This document shows positions 1 through 19,098 of a stretch of 29,998 bases of DNA, one piece after another. Each line of letters opens with the position of its first letter. The first letter of the stretch is position 1. This stretch comes from Candidatus Firestoneibacteriota bacterium (GTDB lineage Bacteria; Oederibacteriota; D2-FULL-39-29; JBBTED01), in assembly GCA_038042445.1 (NCBI GenBank), contig JBBTED010000121.1:1-29998 (forward strand), in the 5' to 3' direction. A program made the translations under genes and the position numbers. The notes below the pieces were generated by a model. That model did no database searches. It was not told the DNA's origin and saw only the letters and a list, made by a program, of their open reading frames with translations.

Positions 1-1035
1 AGCACCCTCAAAAGTTGCCATTTCAGTCATTATCCTGATACTTGCTTCAATAAGATTCATTCCAAGTGCTGCACCTGTGCCTTCACCTAAACGCATATTT
101 AAATTCAGTAGAGGGGATAGACTGATATAATCAAGTATAATTCTATGACCAATTTCAACTGAACAATGAGATGCAATTAAATAATCTTTCACTTTTGGTT
201 CAAGAGTATATGCAATTAATGCAGCAGCTCCAGATATAAAACCATCAATAACTACAGGAATTTTATGCGATGCACCTGCTAATATTACGCCTGCTAATCC
301 GCCAATTTCAAATCCACCAACTTTTGATAGAACATCAAGCCCATCTTTTTTAGACGGTTTATTTACTTCTAATGCTTTTTTTATGGCAGTTATTTTTTTT
401 GATAATTTGTCGTCATCTATGCCTGTGCCTCTGCCTGTTAATTTTTCTACATCTGTTTGTGTTATTGCAGCTACAATTGCGCTACTTGGTGTAGTGTTAC
501 CTATGCCCATATCACCAGTTCCAATTATATCAATGCCTTTTGCAAGTTCTTCTTCTACTATTTCTATACCTGCAGTTATTGATTTTATTGCTTCATCACG
601 TGTCATTGCAGGTCCTTTAGCCATATTTTTTGTGCCATAATTTATTTTTCGGACAACCAATTCTGGATACTTTTCCAAATCACAGGCAACTCCCATATCA
701 GCAACTATTACTTTTGCTCCAGCAAACTTTGCTAATACATTTATTCCAGCTCCGCCTCTTAAAAAATTGTATACCATTTGTGGAGTAACTTCTGATGGAT
801 ATGCGCTTACATTTTCTTCTACAACACCGTGGTCACCTGCCATAGTAAATATTACTTTATTTTTTATTGGTGGATTTTCTTTTCCTGTAATAGCTACTAC
901 TAATTTTGCTATTTCTTCCAATCTTCCAAGACTTCCAAGTGGTTTTGTAAGATTATCTAATCTTTTTTGTGTTTTCTCCAGCAATGATTTATCAATTGCT
1001 GTAATTTTTGCTAATGTTTCTTCTAATTTACCCAT
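1..1035 (-). CDS. cobT: Nicotinate-nucleotide--dimethylbenzimidazole phosphoribosyltransferase (3' end beyond window)
   Basis: Manual translation from ATG 1035 (SD GGAGG upstream): MGKLEETL...RLDNLTKPLGSLGRLEE...AGDHGV...GGAGINV...GDMGIGNTT...GRGTG...VGGFEIGG...IDGFISGAAAL...MRLGEGTGA, all CobT signature motifs. Not in the ORF track because the stop lies outside the window. Confidence 0.97.
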   Translation of the reverse strand, partial: MGKLEETLAKITAIDKSLLEKTQKRLDNLTKPLGSLGRLEEIAKLVVAITGKENPPIKNKVIFTMAGDHGVVEENVSAYPSEVTPQMVYNFLRGGAGINVLAKFAGAKVIVADMGVACDLEKYPELVVRKINYGTKNMAKGPAMTRDEAIKSITAGIEIVEEELAKGIDIIGTGDMGIGNTTPSSAIVAAITQTDVEKLTGRGTGIDDDKLSKKITAIKKALEVNKPSKKDGLDVLSKVGGFEIGGLAGVILAGASHKIPVVIDGFISGAAALIAYTLEPKVKDYLIASHCSVEIGHRIILDYISLSPLLNLNMRLGEGTGAALGMNLIEASIRIMTEMATFEGA

Positions 1036-1064
1036 AATTTTACCGCCTCCTTTTAAAATGTTAC

Positions 1065-1130
1065 TGTAGGGCAAACCTTTAGGTTTGCTTACTTCTGCAA
1101 GAGAATGCAAGGCTAAAGCCTTGCCCTACA
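1065..1130. repeat. GTAG-tagged REP doublet (REPIN-like)
   Basis: TGTAGG-GCAAACC-TTTA-GGTTTGC ... GCAAGGC-TAAA-GCCTTGC-CCTACA; near-identical (reverse complement) to 8701-8758. Confidence 0.85.
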
Positions 1131-1135
1131 TGTTT

Positions 1136-2461
1136 CTAAAGTTTATATTCAACCTCAACACTATTTAAGCCATTTTTTCTAAAACAATATTTTTCTTTTT
1201 TCTCAGCAATAATTCTAAATGCATATTTAATTACTTCTTTATAAAAATCACAAAATACTGCTTTACTATACATATTACCTAATGAATGTAATTCTGCAGG
1301 GCAAGGTGCACCACATATATTTCTAAAGATGCACACATTACATTCAGGAATTTCTTCTGTAACTCTGGCTCTTATTTGTTTGAATGGTTTAGAATGCATA
1401 GCCTTCTCAATAGAATCTTTAAAAATATTTCCGCCTGAAAATTTGTTTAATCCTATAAATTCTCCACAGGGTATCATTTTACCATTAGCTGTTATTGTGA
1501 AAAAGCATCTACCACCACCGCAAGGAGAGATGTCGCACATAAGTCTTCGTGCAGTAGGAGCAATTATTCCTAACAGAGTATTAGCAAAATTACCGATTAT
1601 TATTTTTCTTTTAGAATTCATTGAGTATTTTATAGCTTGTTTAACTGCTTTAAGAAAATATTTTGTCATAATTTTAGTATCGGGTTTAAGATTACGACTG
1701 TTTTTTTGTGTTAATCTGATAGGGTTTATTAATACACAAGGCACTTCTTTTTTATAGAGATACTTTACTAATTCCGGGAGTTTGGTAGCATTTAATTTTG
1801 TTATGGTGGTAAGAATATTTAATCCTTTATATCCACGAAACCATTCAAGAATTTGATTTATTTTTTGAAAATGTCCCCCATATTTTGCGTTTGGTCTTAA
1901 TCTATTATTTGTTTTAGCATCAGCTGCATCTAAAGAAATACCGATACTGATTTTATGTTTTTTTATAAACTCTACATCTTTTTCTTCTAATAGAAGTCCA
2001 TTAGTCTGAATACCAAAATAAAAATCCTTCTTAAATTTTAATATTAACTTGAACAAAATATCTTTAACTATTAGAGGCTCACTTGCATGAAATATAATTA
2101 CAGGCTTCTTTTTTGTATGCGAAAAATACTTTTTAATCTTCATTAATATAAATTCTAATTCTTTTTCACTCATTGAATGTCCGTATTTTCTTGTCTTAGC
2201 AGGAACATAACAATAAGGGCAATTTGCATTGCATCTATCTGTGGGGTCGATATATATAGCGGAAAGCTTTGTGGTGAAGCGAAATTGATACATTTCTTGA
2301 GCAGACCGTTTTTTCATTTTTTCATATAGAGAGAGTAATTTAGCTGGTATAGAAAATGGCAAATCATCATTATTTTTTACAATCCCCCAAAATACACTAT
2401 CAGGTTCAATTAAAATTTTATCTTTTTTGCTTAGATCTTCTAAATACAAGTTTTTCTCCAT
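1136..2461 (-). CDS. cbpB: Radical SAM/SPASM peptide-modifying enzyme, CbpB-like
   Basis: CxxxCxxC (CNANCPYC). C-terminal SPASM cysteines: CDISPCGGGRC...IPC...CNVC...ICGAPC...FC. N-terminal EPDSVFWG motif recalled from the CbpB family. A short Cys peptide gene lies directly upstream. Confidence 0.85.
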   Translation of the reverse strand: MEKNLYLEDLSKKDKILIEPDSVFWGIVKNNDDLPFSIPAKLLSLYEKMKKRSAQEMYQFRFTTKLSAIYIDPTDRCNANCPYCYVPAKTRKYGHSMSEKELEFILMKIKKYFSHTKKKPVIIFHASEPLIVKDILFKLILKFKKDFYFGIQTNGLLLEEKDVEFIKKHKISIGISLDAADAKTNNRLRPNAKYGGHFQKINQILEWFRGYKGLNILTTITKLNATKLPELVKYLYKKEVPCVLINPIRLTQKNSRNLKPDTKIMTKYFLKAVKQAIKYSMNSKRKIIIGNFANTLLGIIAPTARRLMCDISPCGGGRCFFTITANGKMIPCGEFIGLNKFSGGNIFKDSIEKAMHSKPFKQIRARVTEEIPECNVCIFRNICGAPCPAELHSLGNMYSKAVFCDFYKEVIKYAFRIIAEKKEKYCFRKNGLNSVEVEYKL

Positions 2462-2495
2462 AATATTTATTTGTCTCCCTGACTGTAAAAGTAAT

Positions 2496-2523
2496 GTAGG
2501 GAACAGGCAGACCTGTTCCCTAC
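2496..2523. repeat. Single GTAG-tagged perfect hairpin
   Basis: GTAGGGAACAGG-CAGA-CCTGTTCCCTAC, a 12-bp perfect stem, 7 nt downstream of the peptide stop codon. Confidence 0.8.
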
Positions 2524-2530
2524 TTCATCT

Positions 2531-2674
2531 TTATAACAATGCTTTTTTTGTGTCACCATACATCACATAGTGAGACAATCCATTTCCTGTTGTAGCGCAT
2601 TTTAATCGGTAAGATATAGCTTGTGTTTTTACAGCACCAACCTTTTTCAAGCTTTTTTTGCTTTTTTTAACCAT
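2531..2674 (-). CDS. cbpA: 47-aa modified-peptide precursor, CbpA-like: MVKKSKKSLKKVGAVKTQAISYRLKCATTGNGLSHYVMYGDTKKALL
   Basis: Read manually, not in the ORF track. Strong SD AAGGAGGTGA just upstream of ATG 2674; TAA at 2533-2531. The core YRxxCxxxGxGLSHY matches my recollection of the CbpA precursor family. Sits immediately upstream of the rSAM/SPASM gene. Confidence 0.85.
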   Translation of the reverse strand: MVKKSKKSLKKVGAVKTQAISYRLKCATTGNGLSHYVMYGDTKKALL

Positions 2675-2709
2675 ATATATTCACCTCCTTTATTTAGATT
2701 GTGTATGAA

Positions 2710-2766
2710 GGTAGTCGCAGGCTTTAGCCTGCGGTTTTTTTTAGCCCGCCTAGGCGGGCGGCTACC
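2710..2766. repeat. GTAG-tagged REP doublet
   Basis: GGTAGT-CGCAGGC-TTTA-GCCTGCG ... GCCCGCC-TA-GGCGGGC-GGCTACC; the first arm is nearly identical to 28789-28812. Confidence 0.8.
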
Positions 2767-2807
2767 ACTACTAAAATATTCACCAACGGTATTCACTGAG
2801 TATTAAC

Positions 2808-2851
2808 AAATAAAAAAGCCTCAAGCTTATATAAATTCAAACTTGAGGCTT
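2808..2851 (-). terminator. Intrinsic terminator (riboswitch expression platform)
   Basis: Minus strand AAGCCTCAAG-(loop)-CTTGAGGCTT followed by a U-rich run, between the aptamer and the first gene. Confidence 0.8.
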
Positions 2852-2874
2852 ATCAACCAGATAAAACCTTTCAA

Positions 2875-3042
2875 TATTTAGGCAGGTCTTCTGACTTGAG
2901 GTTTATTCTACACTTACTTCTTCCCGGGATAGTGGTCTATCCCAGTGATTTTATGTAAGTTCGTTTTCTCTTACAGCGGCGGGCCCGTTCCTGATTTTTA
3001 CAGGATTCCCTATTCTCTTGTTTTTCAACAAGCACCTAAATA
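2875..3042 (-). ncRNA. Cobalamin (B12) riboswitch aptamer
   Basis: Minus strand: AGGTGC...AATAGGGAATCCTGTAAAAATCAGGAACGGGCCCGCCGCTGTAAG...CACTGGGA...CCGGGAAG...AAGTCAGAAGACCTGCC (B12 box). P1 is TATTTAGG/CCTAAATA. Lies upstream of a cobT operon. Confidence 0.95.
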
Positions 3043-3050
3043 TTTTTAAA

Positions 3051-3079
3051 ATTATACTGTAAAAACTAAAAAGTGTAAA
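3051..3079 (-). promoter_or_regulatory. sigma70 promoter for the riboswitch/cbpAB/cobT transcript
   Basis: TTTACA (3079-3074), 17 nt, TATAAT (3056-3051); predicted TSS ~3044, just 5' of the aptamer. An 8-bp inverted repeat AGTGTAAA-7-TTTACACT (3072-3094) overlaps the -35. Confidence 0.75.
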
Positions 3080-3149: not shown

Positions 3150-5336
3150 ATGAAAGCATTGTCTTTTGAACTTGTGAATTTACCGTTGTTTATAGTATGT
3201 GTTGTTGCTATTTTGTGGGGGCTTTTTTTATATTATAGGTATGTTCGCGAGAATAAGAAAACACCATTTGTTTTGCGTATTATCACATTTATTCTTGTTC
3301 TTATAATATGTTTGCATCCAACATTATTAATATTCAAAAAATTTGATAAAAAACCTGCACTTGCTATTATTGTAGATGATTCTGCGAGTATGCAGATTAA
3401 AGATCCTTTAATTCGGTTTGAACTTATTCGGAAACTTTTTAAAAGTGATAGATTAGTTAAGTTACAGGAGAAATATAAACTAAATTGGTATACTTTTTCT
3501 TCAAAGGTAGAAAAAAGTTCTATGGAAAATATCATTAGAAAATTTCCAAAAGGTGAAATGACAGATATAGGTCTTGCTATACAAAAAGTTACTGATGAAT
3601 TGTCTAATGAAAATTTGTCTGCTATGGTTGTTATTACAGATGGCGCTCATAATGGGAATTATGAACCAGTTCAAGTTGCCCAAAGATGCCCTGTTCCTAT
3701 TTATACAATTGGTGTTGGAAATCCTGAGAAATATTGTGATTTAGAATTAATGCAGGAACATATTCCGGATTTTATATTTAAGAATACAGAAGCTGCAATT
3801 TCTGTGAAAGTTAAATCCTATAATTTTAGGAGTGAAAAACTTCCAGTATTTTTACGAATAGGCAAAGAAGTTTTGCAAAGTAAAAAAATAAATATAAAAG
3901 AAGGCGAAGAAGTTAATGTGGATTTTAAGTTGAAATCTTCTAATATAGGGAATTGGACATACAATATAAGTATTCCCAATTACCCGCAGGAAATCACACA
4001 TTTAAATAATAGGAAAGAATTTGCAATAAATGTATTACGGGACAAAATAAGAATGCTTTATATATGTGGGCAACCAGGATATGAGTATAAATTTTTGCGA
4101 GCTTCTTTAAAGAGTGACCCTAATATAGAAGTGGTTTCATTTGTAATATTGCGAAATCCAGAAAATATATCACTGTTTCCTGAAACTGATCTTACATTGA
4201 TTCCGTTTCCTGCACAGGATTTACTTTTAAAAGACATTTATGATTTTGATATTTTTGTAATGGAAAATTTTTCATACAATAGATTTTTTTCGGTTCAATT
4301 ACTTGAAAATGTCAGAAATTTTGTTGTGGAAAAAGGTGGTGCTTTTGTAATGCTTGGCGGAGTAAATTCTTATGGTAAAGGAGGGTATAAAGGAACTGCT
4401 ATAGAAGATATATTGCCTGTTGAATTTGCAGGGAATCAGGAAGAAATGTTTAACAAAGATTTCAAGTTAAAGCCTGTTGAATTTAATCATCCTATAATGA
4501 TGCTTGGTGATATTCCCGAAGAAAGCAGGCAAATATGGGAATCTATGCCAGAACTTTCTACTTGCAACCAGTTATTAAAACCCAAAAACGGAAGTATTCT
4601 TCTTGGAGTAAATAATTTATCTCCTGATATGCCTGTTTTAACAGTTTGGCAGAAAGGTAAAGGTCGTGTTTTAGCTTTTGCTTCAAATTCTACATGGAAA
4701 TGGAAAACTGGATTAGCAATGAGTGGCAAAGGAACTTATTACTATGATGTATTTTGGCAATCTGTAATTCGCTGGCTTATAAATGCTCCATATCTAAAGC
4801 CTGTTAAAATTAATTTGACAAAACAAAATTTTACAACAGGTGAAGATGTCCGAATACGGATACATGTTTTTGACAAGTATTATAAACCAATTTCCGGTGC
4901 AGATATTAAATTGGATATTAAAACACCTGATAAAAAGAAAATTAATGTAGATGACATAAGTGAAGTAACTGCTGGGGAATACGAAACAAAAGTGAATTTT
5001 ACAGAGGAAGGAGACTATACATTAACCGCTAAAGCTCAGAAAGGTAATTCTATACTTGGAACAGATTCTGTCCATTTTAAAATAAATCTACCTAATTTTG
5101 AATATACTCAGGCTAATTTGAATGAAGAATTACTCAAATCTATTTCAGATGAAACAGGAGGAAAATATTTGCATATTTCAAATGCAGATAAATTTGAAAT
5201 TACATACAAGTCAAATATTCCCGAAGACATTTCAAAATCAAAGCTACCTATTTGGAATCTATTCCCACTTTTTGCAATAGTAGTTTTTCTTTTATCCTTA
5301 GAATGGTACATCCGCAGAATAAACAACCTGCCATAA
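3150..5336 (+). CDS. Membrane-anchored VWA-domain / glutamine-amidotransferase-like (DUF1355-type) protein
   Basis: Two N-terminal TM helices, MIDAS motifs (VDDSASM, TDIG, ITDG), Ig-like segments, GGAFVMLGG...GKGRV GATase-like fold, and a C-terminal TM ending EWYIRR. Confidence 0.75.
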   Translation: MKALSFELVNLPLFIVCVVAILWGLFLYYRYVRENKKTPFVLRIITFILVLIICLHPTLLIFKKFDKKPALAIIVDDSASMQIKDPLIRFELIRKLFKSDRLVKLQEKYKLNWYTFSSKVEKSSMENIIRKFPKGEMTDIGLAIQKVTDELSNENLSAMVVITDGAHNGNYEPVQVAQRCPVPIYTIGVGNPEKYCDLELMQEHIPDFIFKNTEAAISVKVKSYNFRSEKLPVFLRIGKEVLQSKKINIKEGEEVNVDFKLKSSNIGNWTYNISIPNYPQEITHLNNRKEFAINVLRDKIRMLYICGQPGYEYKFLRASLKSDPNIEVVSFVILRNPENISLFPETDLTLIPFPAQDLLLKDIYDFDIFVMENFSYNRFFSVQLLENVRNFVVEKGGAFVMLGGVNSYGKGGYKGTAIEDILPVEFAGNQEEMFNKDFKLKPVEFNHPIMMLGDIPEESRQIWESMPELSTCNQLLKPKNGSILLGVNNLSPDMPVLTVWQKGKGRVLAFASNSTWKWKTGLAMSGKGTYYYDVFWQSVIRWLINAPYLKPVKINLTKQNFTTGEDVRIRIHVFDKYYKPISGADIKLDIKTPDKKKINVDDISEVTAGEYETKVNFTEEGDYTLTAKAQKGNSILGTDSVHFKINLPNFEYTQANLNEELLKSISDETGGKYLHISNADKFEITYKSNIPEDISKSKLPIWNLFPLFAIVVFLLSLEWYIRRINNLP

Positions 5337-8700: not shown

Positions 8701-8758
8701 TGTAGGGCAAGGCTTTAGCCTTGCAAATATTAATGCAAACCTGAAGGTTTGCCCTACA
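8701..8758. repeat. GTAG-tagged REP doublet (REPIN-like)
   Basis: TGTAGG-GCAAGGC-TTTA-GCCTTGC ... GCAAACC-TGAA-GGTTTGC-CCTACA. Confidence 0.85.
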
Positions 8759-8785: not shown

Positions 8786-10102
8786 GTGAGATATTTTATA
8801 GTTTTAAGTTTCATTCTTTTGCAAATTACGACTGCTTATTCTCAGGATAAAGAAATACTTACTATTGAAGAAATAAAGAAAATTGTGCTTGTCAATAATC
8901 GGGATTTAATTTTGGCTAATGAAAAGATGAAATCAGCAGAAGGGAGTCTTATTGAAGCAAGGGCTGGTTTTTTACCAAAATTTACTTTAAGTGGGGCATA
9001 TAATTATATATCTCCAGTGCCGAGTATTAATATGGAGATTCCTATTTCAACAACTGCTAGGATTTCTAAAGAAATAGAAACAGGTGCAAATAATAATTGG
9101 TTGTTTCAGGCGGCATTAAATCATACTTTGTTTGATTGGGGAAGGACATCTGAAAGTTGCAGCTTAACAAATACCAAATTAGAGGTGGCGCAGTTGGATG
9201 TGGATTTAATAGGTATACAAGTATTATTTGATGCAATGCAATTATACTATAGAGTTATTCTTTTTGAAAAGATACTTGTGCAAAATGAGGAGCACTTAAA
9301 AAATTCAGAATTGCATTTAAAAAACTCAGAAGAAAGAGTTAAACAAGGGGTTGCTTCTTCATTTGAGTTGATTAAAGCTAAAGTTCAAGTTTCAAGTGTC
9401 AAACCGTTGGTCAGTAGAGCTAAGAAAAATCTTGAACTGGCAAAAATTTAATTAAAAAGTTTATTAGGAATGCCATTGGATAAAATTATTGAAGTTGAAG
9501 GTGATATAAAAGAAGAATTAGTTAATACTGTGAGTGTTAAAGATGCATTGAGAAATGCGAAAGAAAATAGGATAGAAATAAAAAAGATTCTAAAAAGAAA
9601 AGAAATAGCGTCTAAATTAGTTAATGTGGCAAATACAGGTGATAAACCGATAGTTTCAACAAATGCCAAATATCAATATCAAAATCCTTATTTTTCAGAA
9701 CTTAACTGGGTTAATAATTACAGTTTGGGAGTTGCAGTAACTTTCCCATTGTTTGATGGATTTTTAACAGAAGGTAAAATTAAACAATCTGAAGCAGAAT
9801 TAAATTCAGCAGATATTGATTTAAAAAATATTGAGGCCAAAATTCAATTAGAAATAAATCAAGCAATGCTTGTTTTGGAAGAGTCAATGGAGAATCTTAA
9901 ATACTGCAAAGATACTTGTATCCAAACAGAGGAATATTTGAAAATTGCAAAAATAAGTTTTCAAAGCGGAGTTGTTACAAATTTAGAAATTATTGATGCA
10001 GAATTATCAGTTTTATCTGCTAATACAAATTATTTGCAGGCAGTGTATGATTATAACATAGCAAAACTTGTTTATGCAAAAGCGATAGGGAAGTTAAGGT
10101 AA
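8786..10102 (+). pseudogene. TolC-family outer-membrane efflux protein interrupted by an in-frame TAA at 9449-9451
   Basis: ORFs 8786-9451 and 9470-10102 are in the same frame. Reading through gives ...NLELAKI*LKSLLGMPLD..., a continuous TolC sequence of 438 codons (ARAGFLPKF, LFDWGR, PLFDGF). Confidence 0.8.
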
Positions 10103-12634: not shown

Positions 12635-13771
12635 ATGAATAAGAAAGTTTGGGCAATATCAAGAAAAGAGGTTTTGCATATTTTAAGAGACCCAAGGTCA
12701 TTAGCATTAGCCATATTGATGCCTATAATTCTTTTATTATTATTTGCTTATGCGATAACTTTAGATATAGATAATGTCCAAATGACTGTAGTTGATTTGG
12801 ATAAAACTTTCAAAAGTAGAGAATTTATAAGTAAATTTGAGAGTGGTGGATATTTTGAAATTGTTGAACAGTCACAGAAAGAAAAAGATTTAGAATATCT
12901 TTTGGATAAAGGTGAATGTGTAGTTGGTGTGGTTATACCTCGTGGTTTCAGTAAAAATATAGAAGCTGGGAAAGATGTCAAAATACAGGTTTTAATAGAT
13001 GGAACTGAATCTAATAGAGCGAATATTGTAATTGGTTATGTGAAAGGTATAACATCTTTTTATTCTTACAAAATAGCTGTCCATTTTATGAATAGAAATG
13101 GTATATCTCCTAAAAAAAATACTGGTTTTTTGGAAGGAGTTTTTTATACATTTTACAATACTCAGCTAAAGAGTAAAAATTTTATAATACCCGGATTAAT
13201 AGCAGTCATAATGTCAATAATACTCGCTATTTTAACTTCACTGACAATTGTTAAAGAAAAGGAAAAGGGGACTTTTGAACAGTTAATTGTTACACCTGTA
13301 AAACCATGGGAATTGTTATTTGGTAAAATTGTGCCTTATTGGGTATTGGGAATGTTAGATATGTTGTTAGTAGTTTTTATTGGAACTGTTATTTTTAGTG
13401 TGCCGTTGAAAGGGAATATCATATTTTTATTTTTTACATCCGGGATATTCGCGGTTTGTGGATTAGGAATGGGGCTATTGATTTCTACTATAGCAACTAA
13501 TCAGCAATTTGCAGTTCAGTTTTCTATGATTTTATCAATGTTGCCAAGTTTCATACTTTCCGGGTTTTTATTTCCTGTAAAAAGTATGCCCAAAATATTG
13601 CAAATTATCACTTATGTTATTCCAGCTAAATATTTTTTACTACTTTTAAGGGGGATATTTTTAAAAGGCAGCGGTATCTATAACTTATTTTTAGAGGTAT
13701 TTATTCTTTTTGCATTTGGTGTTGCACTTATTTTTTTGGCATCATTAAAATTTAAGAAAAAAATAACGTAG
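12635..13771 (+). CDS. ABC-2 permease (YbhS-like)
   Basis: KEVLHILRDPR, IIPGLIA, KEKEKGTFEQLIVTP, LSGFLFPV. Confidence 0.92.
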   Translation: MNKKVWAISRKEVLHILRDPRSLALAILMPIILLLLFAYAITLDIDNVQMTVVDLDKTFKSREFISKFESGGYFEIVEQSQKEKDLEYLLDKGECVVGVVIPRGFSKNIEAGKDVKIQVLIDGTESNRANIVIGYVKGITSFYSYKIAVHFMNRNGISPKKNTGFLEGVFYTFYNTQLKSKNFIIPGLIAVIMSIILAILTSLTIVKEKEKGTFEQLIVTPVKPWELLFGKIVPYWVLGMLDMLLVVFIGTVIFSVPLKGNIIFLFFTSGIFAVCGLGMGLLISTIATNQQFAVQFSMILSMLPSFILSGFLFPVKSMPKILQIITYVIPAKYFLLLLRGIFLKGSGIYNLFLEVFILFAFGVALIFLASLKFKKKIT

Positions 13772-13820
13772 GGGCGGATTTACCCGCCCAAAAAGAGGGG
13801 TAGACAAGTTTGTCCCTACA
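13768..13820. repeat. Degenerate GTAG-tagged REP doublet
   Basis: GTAG-GGGCGG-ATTTAC-CCGCCC ... GGGGTAGACAAGTTTGTCCCTACA; overlaps the permease TAG stop. Confidence 0.65.
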
Positions 13821-15948: not shown

Positions 15949-16977
15949 TTATCGTGGATATTTGTAATATTTGCCTTGATAGTTTTTTAAAATAAATCCT
16001 TTATTGGTTGTTTTAACTATATTTTCTGGGGAAATAATAATTTTCCCGCCTCCGTGAGGTGCATCAATTACATAATTTGGAACTGCTATACCTGATATAT
16101 ATCCGCGAAGTGCACTAATAATTTCTAAACCGGTTTCTACTTTGGTTTTGAAATGAGACGTTCCACGACAAAGGTCGGCTTGATATAGATAATATGGTTT
16201 AACTCGTAAAGTTAGTAATTTTCTCATTAATTCATTTATAATTTCTTTTGAATCATTAATCCCTTTAAGTAAAACTGTTTGATTTCCAAGAGGAATACCA
16301 TTATCAGCTAACATTTCGCAAGCTTTTTTGCTTTCTTCAGTTATTTCGTCAGGATGATTAAAATGTGTATTTATATAAATTGGATGATATTTTTTAAGCA
16401 TTTTACATAGCTTTTTAGTTATTCGTTGTGGTAAGACACAAGGTATTCTTGTGCCTATACGAATAATTTCAATATGTTTTATATTGCGAAGCTTTTCAAT
16501 TATTTCTTCAAGTTTAATATCGGTAAGCATAAGGGGGTCGCCACCGGATAAAATTACATCTCTGATTTGTGTATGCGATTTTATATAATTTATGCCTTTA
16601 TTTATAGTAGCATTATTAATTATAATTTTCGTTCCGACTTTGCGTTTCCTTGTGCAAAATCTGCAATACATTGCGCATTTACCTGAAATTAAAAATAATA
16701 CTCTGTCAGGATATCTATGTGTTAAATTAGAAACAGGACTATCTCCTTCTTCATTTAAAGGGTCTATATATCCTTTAGTATCATTAAGTTCTTTAATGTC
16801 TGGTATTGCTTGAAGTTTTAAAGCTGAATTTCTTATAATATTCAAATAATAATGAGGTATACGCATAGGATATTTATTTCGGACTTTGCGTATATCAGAT
16901 TTATTAATGAGAATGTGTTTTGCTAATTGTTCTTCATTAATAACGCTGTCTTTTACTAAAATTTGCCATTTTTCCAT
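15949..16977 (-). CDS. KamA-family radical SAM enzyme, probable lysine 2,3-aminomutase
   Basis: THRYPDRVL, CAMYCRFCTRKR, LSGGDPL, RIGTR, HFNHPDE, NQTVLLKGIND, YLYQAD, VIDAPHGGGK (PLP lysine). Confidence 0.92.
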   Translation of the reverse strand: MEKWQILVKDSVINEEQLAKHILINKSDIRKVRNKYPMRIPHYYLNIIRNSALKLQAIPDIKELNDTKGYIDPLNEEGDSPVSNLTHRYPDRVLFLISGKCAMYCRFCTRKRKVGTKIIINNATINKGINYIKSHTQIRDVILSGGDPLMLTDIKLEEIIEKLRNIKHIEIIRIGTRIPCVLPQRITKKLCKMLKKYHPIYINTHFNHPDEITEESKKACEMLADNGIPLGNQTVLLKGINDSKEIINELMRKLLTLRVKPYYLYQADLCRGTSHFKTKVETGLEIISALRGYISGIAVPNYVIDAPHGGGKIIISPENIVKTTNKGFILKNYQGKYYKYPR

Positions 16978-16978
16978 T

Positions 16979-17935
16979 TTAAGTGAAATTAGATATTTTA
17001 TAAATTAAATCTTCATAAGAAATACCTTTTGAAAAAGCCGCAAGAGCAAAGTAATCATTTCTACTTATATCTGGATTTGGATTAATATCTATAACATACA
17101 TTTTATTATTTTTTAGTCGCATATCAATCCTTGCATAGCTATTTAGTTTTAACACTTCATAACATTTTAAGGCGAAAATTTCAACTCTTTTTTTAGTTTT
17201 ATTGCCGATTTTTGCCGGAATAATAGATACTGTATTTTTAAATTCAAAGCTTTCCGTTATCCATTTTGCATCATACGATATTATTTTTCTGTAATCATCT
17301 TTTATATCTTTAAAATCAATTTCGCCTATGTTCAAAATTTTTCCTTCCAAGATGGATACATGTAATTCTTTGCCACGGATAAATTCTTCTACTAATACGT
17401 TTTGTTTGTATTTTTCTAAAATAAATTTAACCTGACTTCGCAAATCATTTAAATTAAAGATAATTGATTCATTGCTTATTCCCCTGCTGGCATCACTAAA
17501 ATTGGGTTTAACAATACAAGGAAAATATTTAAAATTAATTTCATCATTTTTTTTGAAAAGTTTGAATCTTGGGGTATTTATTTTTTCACTTATTAAGATT
17601 TGTTTGCACAAACTTTTATCAAGACATATCATAAGCGAATTGGAGTTATTTCCTGTGAATTTAAAATCTAAAAGTTCTAATGCTGAAACAAATCTATATT
17701 CATTTTGGCTAAGGCTATTATAATCTTCCACTAAATTAAATATAATATCAGGTTTTATTTTTTGTATTAAATTAATGTCTTTATTAATATTTCCGCTTAA
17801 AGATAGTGTTTTAGCGTTTAATATTTTTGCAATTTCATTAGCTGTTTTTATTGTAGATGTATCAGATATTCTTTCTTTTTCAAATTCGTACTTTGTGTGT
17901 TTTGTATCATAATATACGACTATAATTTTTTTCAT
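16979..17935 (-). CDS. Ddl-like ATP-grasp ligase (B)
   Basis: IFNLVE, FTG, DKSLCK, IVKP..SDASRGI, VEEFIRGKE, SYDAKW, ARIDMR, DINPNPD. Confidence 0.85.
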   Translation of the reverse strand: MKKIIVVYYDTKHTKYEFEKERISDTSTIKTANEIAKILNAKTLSLSGNINKDINLIQKIKPDIIFNLVEDYNSLSQNEYRFVSALELLDFKFTGNNSNSLMICLDKSLCKQILISEKINTPRFKLFKKNDEINFKYFPCIVKPNFSDASRGISNESIIFNLNDLRSQVKFILEKYKQNVLVEEFIRGKELHVSILEGKILNIGEIDFKDIKDDYRKIISYDAKWITESFEFKNTVSIIPAKIGNKTKKRVEIFALKCYEVLKLNSYARIDMRLKNNKMYVIDINPNPDISRNDYFALAAFSKGISYEDLIYKISNFT

Positions 17936-19059
17936 AACATATTATATCTTTTTAATGCTGTTTTTAACATATTAGTAATTAATGTATTGTAATTCCAGCC
18001 AAAAGCACACGCTGCTTTTGGAAAACAAGAATTGTCTTTAGGGTTTGGCAGTAATCCCGGCAAAGGATTTATTTCAATTATATTAGGTTCATTGTTGCTG
18101 TCGAGCCGGATATCAATTCTGCAGAAATCTCTGCATTTAAACAACTTAAAAGTTTTAATAGTTAAATCTTCAATTTTTGACTTAAGGATTGTATTTGTTT
18201 TGGCTGGACATTCAAATATATTTAATGGGTTATCAGGTTTATCCCAAACCCATTTTGCTTCATAACTATAGATTTTATTTGCGTTATGTGGTAGTTCATC
18301 AAATTTTATTTCAACTATTGGTAAAACAATAGGTTTGTAATTTCCAATTATTGCTACAGTGAATTCTCTGCCCGGCAAATATTCTTCTACTAATGCGGGT
18401 TGGTTATATATTTTAATTATAGATTTAATTCTATTTTTAAGCTCTATTTGATTATTTGCAATTGAATTATTTGAAATGCCTTTGCTTGAACCTTCAAAAT
18501 TAGGTTTAACTATTACAGGATACTTTAAGTTATGATTAATTTTTTCAGAAAAAGCTAATAAAAAAATTGGATTTTTTATATTTGCATAATTCATTAATTC
18601 TTTAGATTTGGCTTTATCAAGTGCTATAGCAAGAGTTAAAGTATCTGAGCCGGTATAAGGGATATTTAATTTTTCTAATATAGCAGGGATTTTTGATTCT
18701 CTTGCAAAACCTGATAAACCCTCAGCTATATTAAAAACTATATCTGGTTTAATATTCAAAAATATTTTATCGTTTGCAGATGGTTCATCAACTAAATATA
18801 CACTATGCTTTTCTGATACAAGGGCATTTTTAATAGCTTCAATAGTTGAATAATCGTCCCATTCAACGTAGAAATCCTGCGGCAATTTTTTTAAGTTGCC
18901 AGTAGGCAGTGAATTTCGCGAATTAAAAACCAATGCAATTTTTATCTTATTTGAACTCGATATTTTTTTGAATTCTATGAGAGGATTTTTAAATTTATTT
19001 AAATCACGTTTTCGTAAAGATATTTTTGATGAGAACTTTGTTAGATTGTTTAACATCAT
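17932..19059 (-). CDS. Ddl-like ATP-grasp ligase (A)
   Basis: FNIAEG, PYTGS, LDKAKSK, IVKPNFEGSSKGI, VEEYLPGREF, SYEAKW, RIDIR, EINPLPG. Start moved to ATG 19059 (or 19056) because ATG 19071 lies inside the -10 box. Confidence 0.85.
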   Translation of the reverse strand: MMLNNLTKFSSKISLRKRDLNKFKNPLIEFKKISSSNKIKIALVFNSRNSLPTGNLKKLPQDFYVEWDDYSTIEAIKNALVSEKHSVYLVDEPSANDKIFLNIKPDIVFNIAEGLSGFARESKIPAILEKLNIPYTGSDTLTLAIALDKAKSKELMNYANIKNPIFLLAFSEKINHNLKYPVIVKPNFEGSSKGISNNSIANNQIELKNRIKSIIKIYNQPALVEEYLPGREFTVAIIGNYKPIVLPIVEIKFDELPHNANKIYSYEAKWVWDKPDNPLNIFECPAKTNTILKSKIEDLTIKTFKLFKCRDFCRIDIRLDSNNEPNIIEINPLPGLLPNPKDNSCFPKAACAFGWNYNTLITNMLKTALKRYNML

Positions 19060-19069
19060 TCTGGTAAAC

Positions 19070-19098
19070 ATTATATGTTAAGTGAAAATTATTAGCAA
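19070..19098 (-). promoter_or_regulatory. sigma70 promoter for the ATP-grasp/KamA operon
   Basis: TTGCTA (19098-19093), 17 nt, TATAAT (19075-19070). Confidence 0.65.

Follow-up and report, generated by a model that had tools for sequence, protein, structure and literature searches.

The question raised by this locus is what a 47-residue peptide and a radical S-adenosylmethionine (SAM) enzyme do together behind a cobalamin riboswitch and in front of cobT. The locus lies in a 29,998-nucleotide stretch (the window; G+C 31%) of contig JBBTED010000121.1 from a Candidatus Firestoneibacteriota bacterium. Positions 1-3079 of the minus strand form one unit, in the order promoter, riboswitch, terminator, cbpA, cbpB and cobT (Table 1). 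This order had been proposed in a first-pass annotation made from the letters alone, and every part of it was found in its place. Our best overall explanation, to which we give a probability of about 40%, is a B12-repressed operon in which the radical SAM/SPASM enzyme CbpB matures CbpA into an intracellular accessory peptide of cobamide assembly. That CbpB goes with a cognate and unusually conserved peptide, and that their function is tied to cobamide metabolism, is well supported.

The CbpA/CbpB pair and its cobamide context

Judged by its sequences, the pair belongs to CbpA/CbpB, a system defined by bioinformatics; its enzyme passes the family profile, and its peptide is homologous in its core but fails the cut-off. 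CbpB scores 493.2 bits against the equivalog model TIGR04163 (rSAM_cobopep, cut-off 375 bits), covering profile positions 12-425 of 428. The peptide gene is located directly upstream, and CbpA obtains 27 bits (E 2.3e-6) against TIGR04164 (cobo_pep, cut-off 35 bits), where residues 20-37 align with model positions 2-19 of 25. The likeness to these two families, which the first-pass annotation had pointed out, is supported, with the enzyme above its cut-off and the peptide below. CobT passes TIGR03160 (460.5 against a cut-off of 319.3 bits, profile positions 2-332 of 334), and translation probably starts at the ATG at 1035, which lies behind AGGAGG. The closest relatives of CbpB and CobT among the matches listed have 65-73% identity and come from metagenome-assembled genomes of Omnitrophota.

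Relatives of CbpB were found in at least 575 stretches of a species-representative genome collection. The best 80 of these, with up to 10 kb on each flank, were used as the comparison set. They come mainly from Omnitrophota, Nitrospirota/Thermodesulfovibrionia and Planctomycetota, with single loci from Bacillota, Deltaproteobacteria, Hydrogenedentota, Nitrospinota, Deferribacteres and Syntrophorhabdaceae. Open reading frames (ORFs) were called in the 80 loci and clustered, and the cluster representatives were annotated with Pfam and NCBIfam. Riboswitches were scanned with Rfam at the gathering threshold in 44 of the loci.

At least one cobamide gene is present in 76 of the 80 loci, and all 28 named cobamide-type gene clusters lie almost wholly on the cbpB strand. 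A location in cobalamin operons is presumably part of the description of the CbpA/CbpB family, and the window pair shares this context. Upstream of cbpA, a same-strand riboswitch of the cobalamin clan was detected in 18 of the 44 scanned loci. Among the 20 scanned loci with the full 10 kb upstream the number is 15, and in the other five the operon reaches the locus edge. The homologues thus bear out the link to cobamide genes and riboswitches that had been suggested from the window. Within the 30-kb window itself, no cobamide gene was found outside the cbpAB/cobT unit.

The aptamer is full-length, passes the gathering score of RF00174 (31.5 bits) by a wide margin, and is the only Rfam match in the whole window; the search against this model had been proposed as a check on the first reading. 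The terminator hairpin is present in the minimum free energy fold of the leader (2910-2676, z -5.6). Since a cobalamin riboswitch and a terminator precede the genes, the operon is expected to be ON when cobamide is scarce, as had been predicted. The layout is that of the usual transcriptional OFF switch, and a B12-repressed operon is well supported. When cobamide (adenosylcobalamin or another) is plentiful, the aptamer would fold, the terminator at 2851-2806 would form and transcription would stop, while at low cobamide the polymerase would read through into cbpA, cbpB and cobT. The promoter call rests mainly on its position. In the 2.2 kb scanned, 14 promoter-like sites stand against 10.3 expected, hardly an enrichment, and the score alone is weak evidence. 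One of the two hairpins that follow the terminator also scored as terminator-like on the plus strand (2713-2736).

In the window the pair comes first in the operon, with the riboswitch immediately before it. In most of the related loci cbpA lies in the interior of the operon, and among the 44 scanned loci only L006 has the same arrangement as the window (RF01482 at 1538-1667, cbpA at 1741). In another locus, which has no upstream riboswitch, a cobalamin riboswitch was seen directly downstream of cbpB on the same strand (L010:11336-11611), where the adjoining called ORFs are on the opposite strand. In other respects the window instance is an ordinary member of the CbpA/CbpB family.

Table 1. 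Features of the minus-strand unit, from the promoter to cobT. Free energies and z-scores refer to the predicted RNA structures.
Feature	Position	Strand	Details
Sigma-70-like promoter, TTTACA-17-TATAAT	3051..3079	-	11/12 matches; abuts the 5' edge of the riboswitch
Cobalamin riboswitch aptamer, RF00174	2864..3054	-	123.7 bits, E 6.4e-31, model positions 1-189/189
Intrinsic terminator of the riboswitch expression platform	2806..2851	-	14-bp stem (2851-2816), 8-nt loop, T run
Two G+C-rich hairpins, downstream of the terminator and ahead of the cbpA ribosome-binding site	2712..2770	-	-33.5 kcal/mol, z -3.2; REP-like appearance
cbpA-like precursor gene, 47 aa	2531..2674	-	TIGR04164 27 bits; Lys-rich residues 1-19, conserved residues 20-47
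Perfect 12-bp hairpin in the cbpA-cbpB spacer	2496..2523	-	-22.2 kcal/mol, z -5.9; GTAGGG/CCCTAC ends
cbpB, radical SAM/SPASM, 441 aa	1136..2461	-	TIGR04163 493.2 bits; PF04055 and PF13186
Structured cbpB-cobT spacer, 100 nt	1036..1135	-	-33.2 kcal/mol, z -3.0; REP-like palindrome 1066-1129, then the cobT ribosome-binding site
cobT, nicotinate-nucleotide--dimethylbenzimidazole phosphoribosyltransferase	1..1035	-	TIGR03160 460.5 bits; PF02277; 3' end cut by the window edge

The peptide gene is preceded by a strong ribosome-binding site, AGGAGGTG. A CbpA-like ORF is found directly upstream of cbpB on the same strand in 75 of the 80 loci. Among the five loci without one, three have less than 240 nt of contig upstream and L008 has 301 nt; in L009 no CbpA-like ORF was found within 3 kb upstream of cbpB. 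An alignment of the window peptide with its 75 relatives (76 peptides, 60 distinct cores) gives the core consensus [IV][SA][YF][RH][LM]KCx[KR]T[AGS]NGL[ST]H[FY]VMYGD... N31, G32, L33 and H35 are invariant, and C26 and T29 are each retained in 75 of the 76 peptides. The motif YRxxCxxxGxGLSHY, which had been read from the window peptide, therefore stands as a conserved core beside homologous cbpB genes, but two of its positions do not: G30 is Ala and Y36 is Phe in 68 of the 76 peptides each. The conserved part is the last ~30 residues, kept across phyla, while the N-terminus is unconserved and rich in lysine (455 Lys among 1426 residues in the 76 peptides). Six peptides terminate with H[FY]VPxEKKxLV and do not have the MYGD stretch.

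None of the 75 relatives outscores the window peptide against TIGR04164. A profile search of a large protein collection returned 695 CbpA-like peptides, and those with a name are called 'hypothetical protein'. Due to this naming and the poor match of the relatives to TIGR04164, the precursors of this clade are missed by current annotation; the related enzymes carry the CbpB name while their peptides go unannotated. No Pfam family matched CbpA. Among PDB sequences, a profile of 75 CbpA peptides hit nothing but an antibody heavy chain, by chance (E 0.44), and a search of the ESM Atlas with CbpA returned no structure, the best clusters being 'hypothetical protein' at 0.87-0.88, below the 0.9 level.

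The gap between cbpA and cbpB is 69 nt in the window, and a long spacer at this place is general. Its median length is 146 nt and it is at least 60 nt in 67 of 75 loci, whereas the flanking junctions have medians of 19.5 nt (from the preceding cobamide gene to cbpA) and 11 nt. Of the 70 loci in which the spacer reaches 35 nt or more, 62 have one that is more stable than its shuffles (z <= -2, median z -5.3), although the shuffles were mononucleotide and overstate z. In other operons for ribosomally synthesised and post-translationally modified peptides (RiPPs) and in those for pyrroloquinoline quinone (PQQ), peptide is commonly made in excess over enzyme by means of a stable hairpin behind the precursor gene. 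The long structured spacer after cbpA would likewise make the peptide exceed the enzyme, and such an excess fits a peptide that is consumed or acts stoichiometrically.

The hairpins of the window spacers were rejected as stand-alone evidence for specific regulatory signals. G+C-rich intergenic palindromes with GTAGGG...CCCTAC ends occur at 1066-1129 and 2496-2523, and like-ended ones also at 8702-8757 and 13768-13819. None of the long form and 0.01 of the short form are expected by chance. These palindromes are probably elements like the repetitive extragenic palindromic (REP) sequences.

The CbpB enzyme, the modelled complex and the putative chemistry

The cysteines of the radical SAM motif CxxxCxxC (C77, C81, C84) are invariant in 16 aligned CbpB sequences. 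The complete SPASM set is invariant in the same alignment (C309, C314, C332, C374, C377, C383, C387, C404), with the spacing C314...C332, C374-x2-C377-x5-C383-x3-C387 and C404. In the AlphaFold model of CbpB (mean predicted local distance difference test score, pLDDT, 79.4; predicted TM-score 0.84), the radical SAM barrel is preceded by three N-terminal strands and a long helix.

The nearest characterised enzymes modify peptides or proteins. After TIGR04163, the next best NCBIfam matches of CbpB are PapB (123 bits), DynA, HxsB and anSME, all far below their own cut-offs. Both by sequence and by fold the best solved match is 5wgg, the structure of CteB, a maturase of the SCIFF thioether peptides (ranthipeptides), with E 5e-24 by sequence and E 3e-16 by fold (query TM-score 0.67). 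CbpB shares with CteB, the SCIFF enzymes and PapB the radical SAM and SPASM domains with an N-terminal peptide-binding part. However, it scores 123.3 bits against the PapB family (NF047865, cut-off 340) and 80.4 bits against the SCIFF family (TIGR03974, cut-off 425), CbpA has one conserved Cys where SCIFF has six, and the N-terminal domain of CbpB is shorter than in these enzymes. The second-best solved match is anSME (E 5e-18 by sequence; 4k36, E 1.5e-15 by fold), which has the highest target TM-score, 0.75 for 4k36 and up to 0.78 among 4k36-4k39. Further structural matches are TigE, ChlB, SuiB and SkfB. The Cys pattern of the first auxiliary cluster in anSME aligns with C309, C319 and C332 of CbpB; in pairwise alignments C309 and C319 are also Cys in anSME and not in CteB. 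CbpB nevertheless obtains 107.6 bits against TIGR03942 (cut-off 349.45), anSME has no N-terminal extension, and CbpA does not contain CxPxR, which we take to be the sulfatase motif.

The complex of CbpB and CbpA was modelled with SAM and three clusters and obtained a score of 0.90, while the best control obtained 0.01. In the benchmark, the mark of 0.90 is reached by 116 of 157 solved complexes and by 2 of 215 mismatched pairs. Between runs, at least 52% of the contacts are shared, and the partner pLDDT is at least 48. According to the model, the interface on CbpA is formed by residues 17-47, i.e. the conserved part, and the Lys-rich N-terminus is outside it. On the enzyme it is formed by residues 24-29, by the barrel strands 118-125, 148-152, 170-174, 212-217 and 242-246, and by the SPASM region (300-320, 332-334). 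Residues I20-L24 of CbpA lie against strand 24-29 and the C-terminal tail (437-441) of CbpB, while the barrel and the SPASM region contact the remainder. The recognition of CbpA seems to sit in these residues 20-24, within the conserved part. That CbpB binds CbpA as its cognate peptide is thus a proposal of the model, and because similar enzyme-peptide complexes have already been solved, the high score is a sign of likeness and not a proof.

It could also be that CbpB acts on a corrinoid intermediate or a protein, with CbpA as a small regulatory or scaffolding partner. The modification of CbpA remains putative, which leaves room for this idea, and the N-terminal domain of CbpB, with three strands and one helix, is shorter than what we take to be the size of a classical RiPP recognition element. 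However, all the nearest relatives of CbpB are enzymes that modify peptides or proteins, the conserved peptide enters the barrel in the complex model, and the peptide and enzyme genes are adjacent in 75 of the 80 loci. We therefore consider such a partner role quite improbable.

If CbpA is the substrate of CbpB, as we favour, the enzyme would capture the conserved C-terminal ~30 residues of the peptide. The stretch I20-L24 would join the small N-terminal beta-sheet as a strand, and the remainder would enter the barrel beside SAM and the first auxiliary cluster, where the 5'-deoxyadenosyl radical of CbpB would abstract a hydrogen from the core. The chemistry can only be guessed by analogy with the relatives. 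Our first guess is that Cys26, the only conserved Cys, forms a thioether with a conserved side chain nearby (Thr29, Asn31 or Asp41). We prefer this over an anSME-like oxidation of Cys26, and the oxidation in turn over an aromatic cross-link at His35 or Tyr/Phe36. In CteB the substrate Cys binds an open iron site.

Gene neighbourhoods and the place of the peptide in cobamide metabolism

The recurrent neighbours of cbpAB are cobamide genes. Their clusters, in number of loci among the 80, are an ABC ATPase (CbiO/BtuD-like, 52), CbiB (39), a CobD-type aminotransferase (38), corrin methylases (37), CobT (33, or 35 by tblastn), CobQ (33), CbiQ (33), CobS (32), CbiC/X (31), CbiD (31), CobC (30), CobU (29), CbiM (28), CbiA (24), CbiG-H (22), BtuF (17), BtuC (17), a TonB-dependent receptor (17) and CobA (14). 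The gene directly upstream of cbpAB is most often cbiO (20 loci), followed by cbiB (9), cobS (6), cobU (5) and cobD (5); directly downstream of cbpB we find cbiD (18), cobT (7), cbiA (6), a PF01902 gene (6) and cobA (6). The operon position of cbpAB varies, and the adjacency to cobT in the window is one arrangement among many.

In 25 of the 80 loci, genes for ring synthesis, late steps and cobalt transport by an energy-coupling factor (ECF) system occur together. In 16 loci only late and Btu salvage genes are present (a Btu or TonB receptor with cobUTSC), and in 11 only late-step genes; these labels are judged from at most 10 kb per side and not from whole genomes. As the operon position varies and both operon types carry cbpAB, the peptide would act at a step common to de novo synthesis and salvage. 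It is the late and salvage steps, not cobT or cobalt uptake, to which the module is tied, and its distribution points away from cobalt uptake and from lower-ligand activation specifically.

This distribution bears directly on cobalt. The modified CbpA could chelate Co2+ via its Cys and His and deliver it to the ECF transporter or a chelatase; a cobalt-binding or delivery peptide was the main idea of the first-pass annotation, and a suggestion of cobalt binding is, we presume, also part of the TIGRFAMs note on the family. The commonest upstream neighbour, found in the 20 cbiO loci, is indeed the ATPase gene that ends a cbiM-(small ORF)-cbiQ-cbiO set, and the Cys and His of CbpA are invariant or nearly so. 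However, the adjacency to cbiO is concentrated in related loci of Nitrospirota and Thermodesulfovibrionia, and the 27 loci with late genes, with or without Btu genes, contain no gene for cobalt transport or ring synthesis in their flanks. The surroundings of cbpAB in those loci are cobU/T/S/C and genes for corrinoid uptake, a setting that requires no cobalt insertion, and the window itself is of the type without cobalt-transporter or ring-synthesis genes in the flanks. A cobalt peptide is therefore unlikely in our judgement.

The position of cobT had led to a second idea, that the peptide is the source of the lower-ligand base. In a wider form, CbpA would be a sacrificial scaffold like PqqA or MftA, and CbpB would start its conversion to this base or to another cofactor. 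SPASM enzymes yield PQQ and mycofactocin from small peptides, and the PqqA/PqqE and MftA/MftC pairs share with cbpAB the small conserved peptide beside a SPASM enzyme, the cofactor-related operon and the excess-peptide architecture, which suits a consumed substrate. The core is also conserved very strongly across phyla, unlike typical antibiotic RiPPs, and there is no bza- or bluB-like cluster among the recurrent neighbours. The argument from cobT itself is not supported by the comparison: the gene follows cbpB in the window and in only 7 of the 80 loci, and with 33 loci it is no closer to cbpAB than cobS (32), cobU (29) and cobC (30). Conservation is limited to two genes: beside cbpAB there is no recurrent PqqD/MftB-like partner, peptidase or other tailoring gene, in contrast to what we take to be the arrangement of the PQQ and mycofactocin systems. 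CbpB matches 70 NCBIfam families, the 25 best of which include neither PqqE nor MftC, and the ~25-30 conserved residues exceed the need of a precursor, although part of them could be a recognition sequence. A small molecule made from CbpA is, in our view, rather unlikely and ranks after the cobalt peptide.

With a radical SAM/SPASM gene behind a small peptide gene, the pair also has the general architecture of RiPP loci, and it could encode an exported antibiotic or signal that sits in B12 operons by chance. The 33 recurrent neighbour clusters that were annotated include no exporter, peptidase or immunity gene. Across phyla the core hardly varies, and the pair is embedded in cobamide operons on the same strand in 76 of the 80 loci. 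All this makes an exported product very improbable, and the lack of recurrent exporter, peptidase and tailoring genes suggests an intracellular peptide instead of an antibiotic or of a small molecule made in several steps.

On the reading that we prefer, the mature CbpA would thus stay in the cell as an accessory factor at the step shared by de novo synthesis and salvage. Our preferred guess for its role is a small carrier or axial-ligand donor, through His35 and perhaps Cys26, for incomplete corrinoids in late assembly. We searched the open full-text literature, with subscription journals outside that search, and found no paper on the product or role of CbpA/CbpB, in agreement with the first-pass annotation, which had called both undemonstrated. 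Going further, anaerobic cobamide assembly or salvage would have in the matured CbpA a dedicated component that has gone unrecognised, either as a cross-linked peptide that carries or ligates corrinoids or as the supplier of a part of the final molecule; we regard this stronger claim as doubtful.

Several points weigh against an accessory peptide matured by CbpB. The 80 loci are the closest relatives from few phyla, phylogenetically clustered and not independent, and the 'salvage-type' label has the short range given above. In four loci (L001, L017, L029, L038) no cobamide gene is nearby, and a comparison of their neighbours revealed no common theme. The window CbpA fails the TIGR04164 cut-off, and only 18 of its 75 relatives match that model at E <= 0.01. 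Among the 76 peptides, that of L074 (L074:4495-4626) is the only one in which Gly replaces the conserved Cys. For a modification that is itself putative, the chemistry is guessed by analogy with the relatives, and the mechanism of CteB may not apply, as CbpB has C309 and C319 where CteB has no Cys. The score of the complex may mirror the likeness to the solved complexes of radical SAM enzymes with peptides (5wgg/5why, 4k38, 9gm3, 5v1t). Finally, the stability of the spacers is overstated by the type of shuffling, and the hairpins of the window spacers may be generic REP-like elements.

Some further observations were made on the peptides and neighbours. The L074 peptide contains a Cys-Cys pair nine residues before the position of the Gly, and in L029 (7901-14275) cbpAB lies between two genes of the U32 peptidase family, beside an ABC1 kinase-like gene. 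A PP-loop ATPase gene of PF01902, diphthine-ammonia ligase-like and below the cut-off for that family, occurs in 13 of the 80 loci (L003-L005, L007, L008, L011, L016, L046, L061, L065, L075, L076, L078; e.g. L011:12062-12754). It directly follows cbpB in 6 of the 13 and is accompanied by Btu/TonB-receptor genes in 12 of them, the flanks of L008 being the exception. The protein could be an unrecognised enzyme of corrinoid salvage or of CbpA tailoring. A gene similar to the C-terminal domain of asparagine synthetase, with a weak likeness to lasso-peptide cyclases, adjoins cbpA or cbpB in three loci (L005:8005-8937, L011:8872-9819, and L022, where it comes directly after cbpB); in L011 it continues in frame into cbpA. 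The cobamide operons of Nitrospirota contain a 432-aa protein with a weak BPL_N match only (17 loci, e.g. L053:13743-15041) and a 264-aa HD-domain protein (12 loci, e.g. L077:12012-12806), both without an NCBIfam name. At the place of cbiN, between cbiM and cbiQ, 27 loci contain a 113-aa ORF (e.g. L053:3510-3851) with no Pfam match at E <= 0.01.

Other genes of the window and significance

Divergent from the riboswitch promoter, the plus strand at 3150-5336 encodes a 728-aa membrane protein with VWA, GATase1-like and Ig-like domains and no cobamide link. Further along the plus strand, a TolC-like outer-membrane protein is encoded as two ORFs (8786-9451 and 9470-10102) that match the N- and C-terminal halves of the model, so that the gene is split or frameshifted; genes for an adaptor, two ABC ATPases and two ABC-2 permeases lie downstream of them. 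The minus strand at 15949-19071 contains a KamA-family aminomutase, below the AblA cut-off, and then two ATP-grasp genes similar to D-Ala-D-Ala ligases, which may be a cluster for the ligation of beta-amino acids.

Cobamide biosynthesis is regarded as essentially mapped. The two-gene cbpAB module is nevertheless found inside the cobamide operons of many anaerobes, in at least 575 stretches of species-representative genomes. For work at the bench it is useful to know that the existing CbpA model misses this clade's peptides, and that C26, T29, N31, G32, L33, H35 and F/Y36 are the prime residues for mutation. If the peptide does act in the handling or assembly of corrinoids, a RiPP-like step would be added to a central cofactor pathway and a widely conserved 'hypothetical' peptide would be explained. 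On the stronger claim made above, that of a dedicated component, cobamide production in Omnitrophota, Nitrospirota, Planctomycetota and further anaerobes would rely on a RiPP-like step that the textbook pathway lacks.

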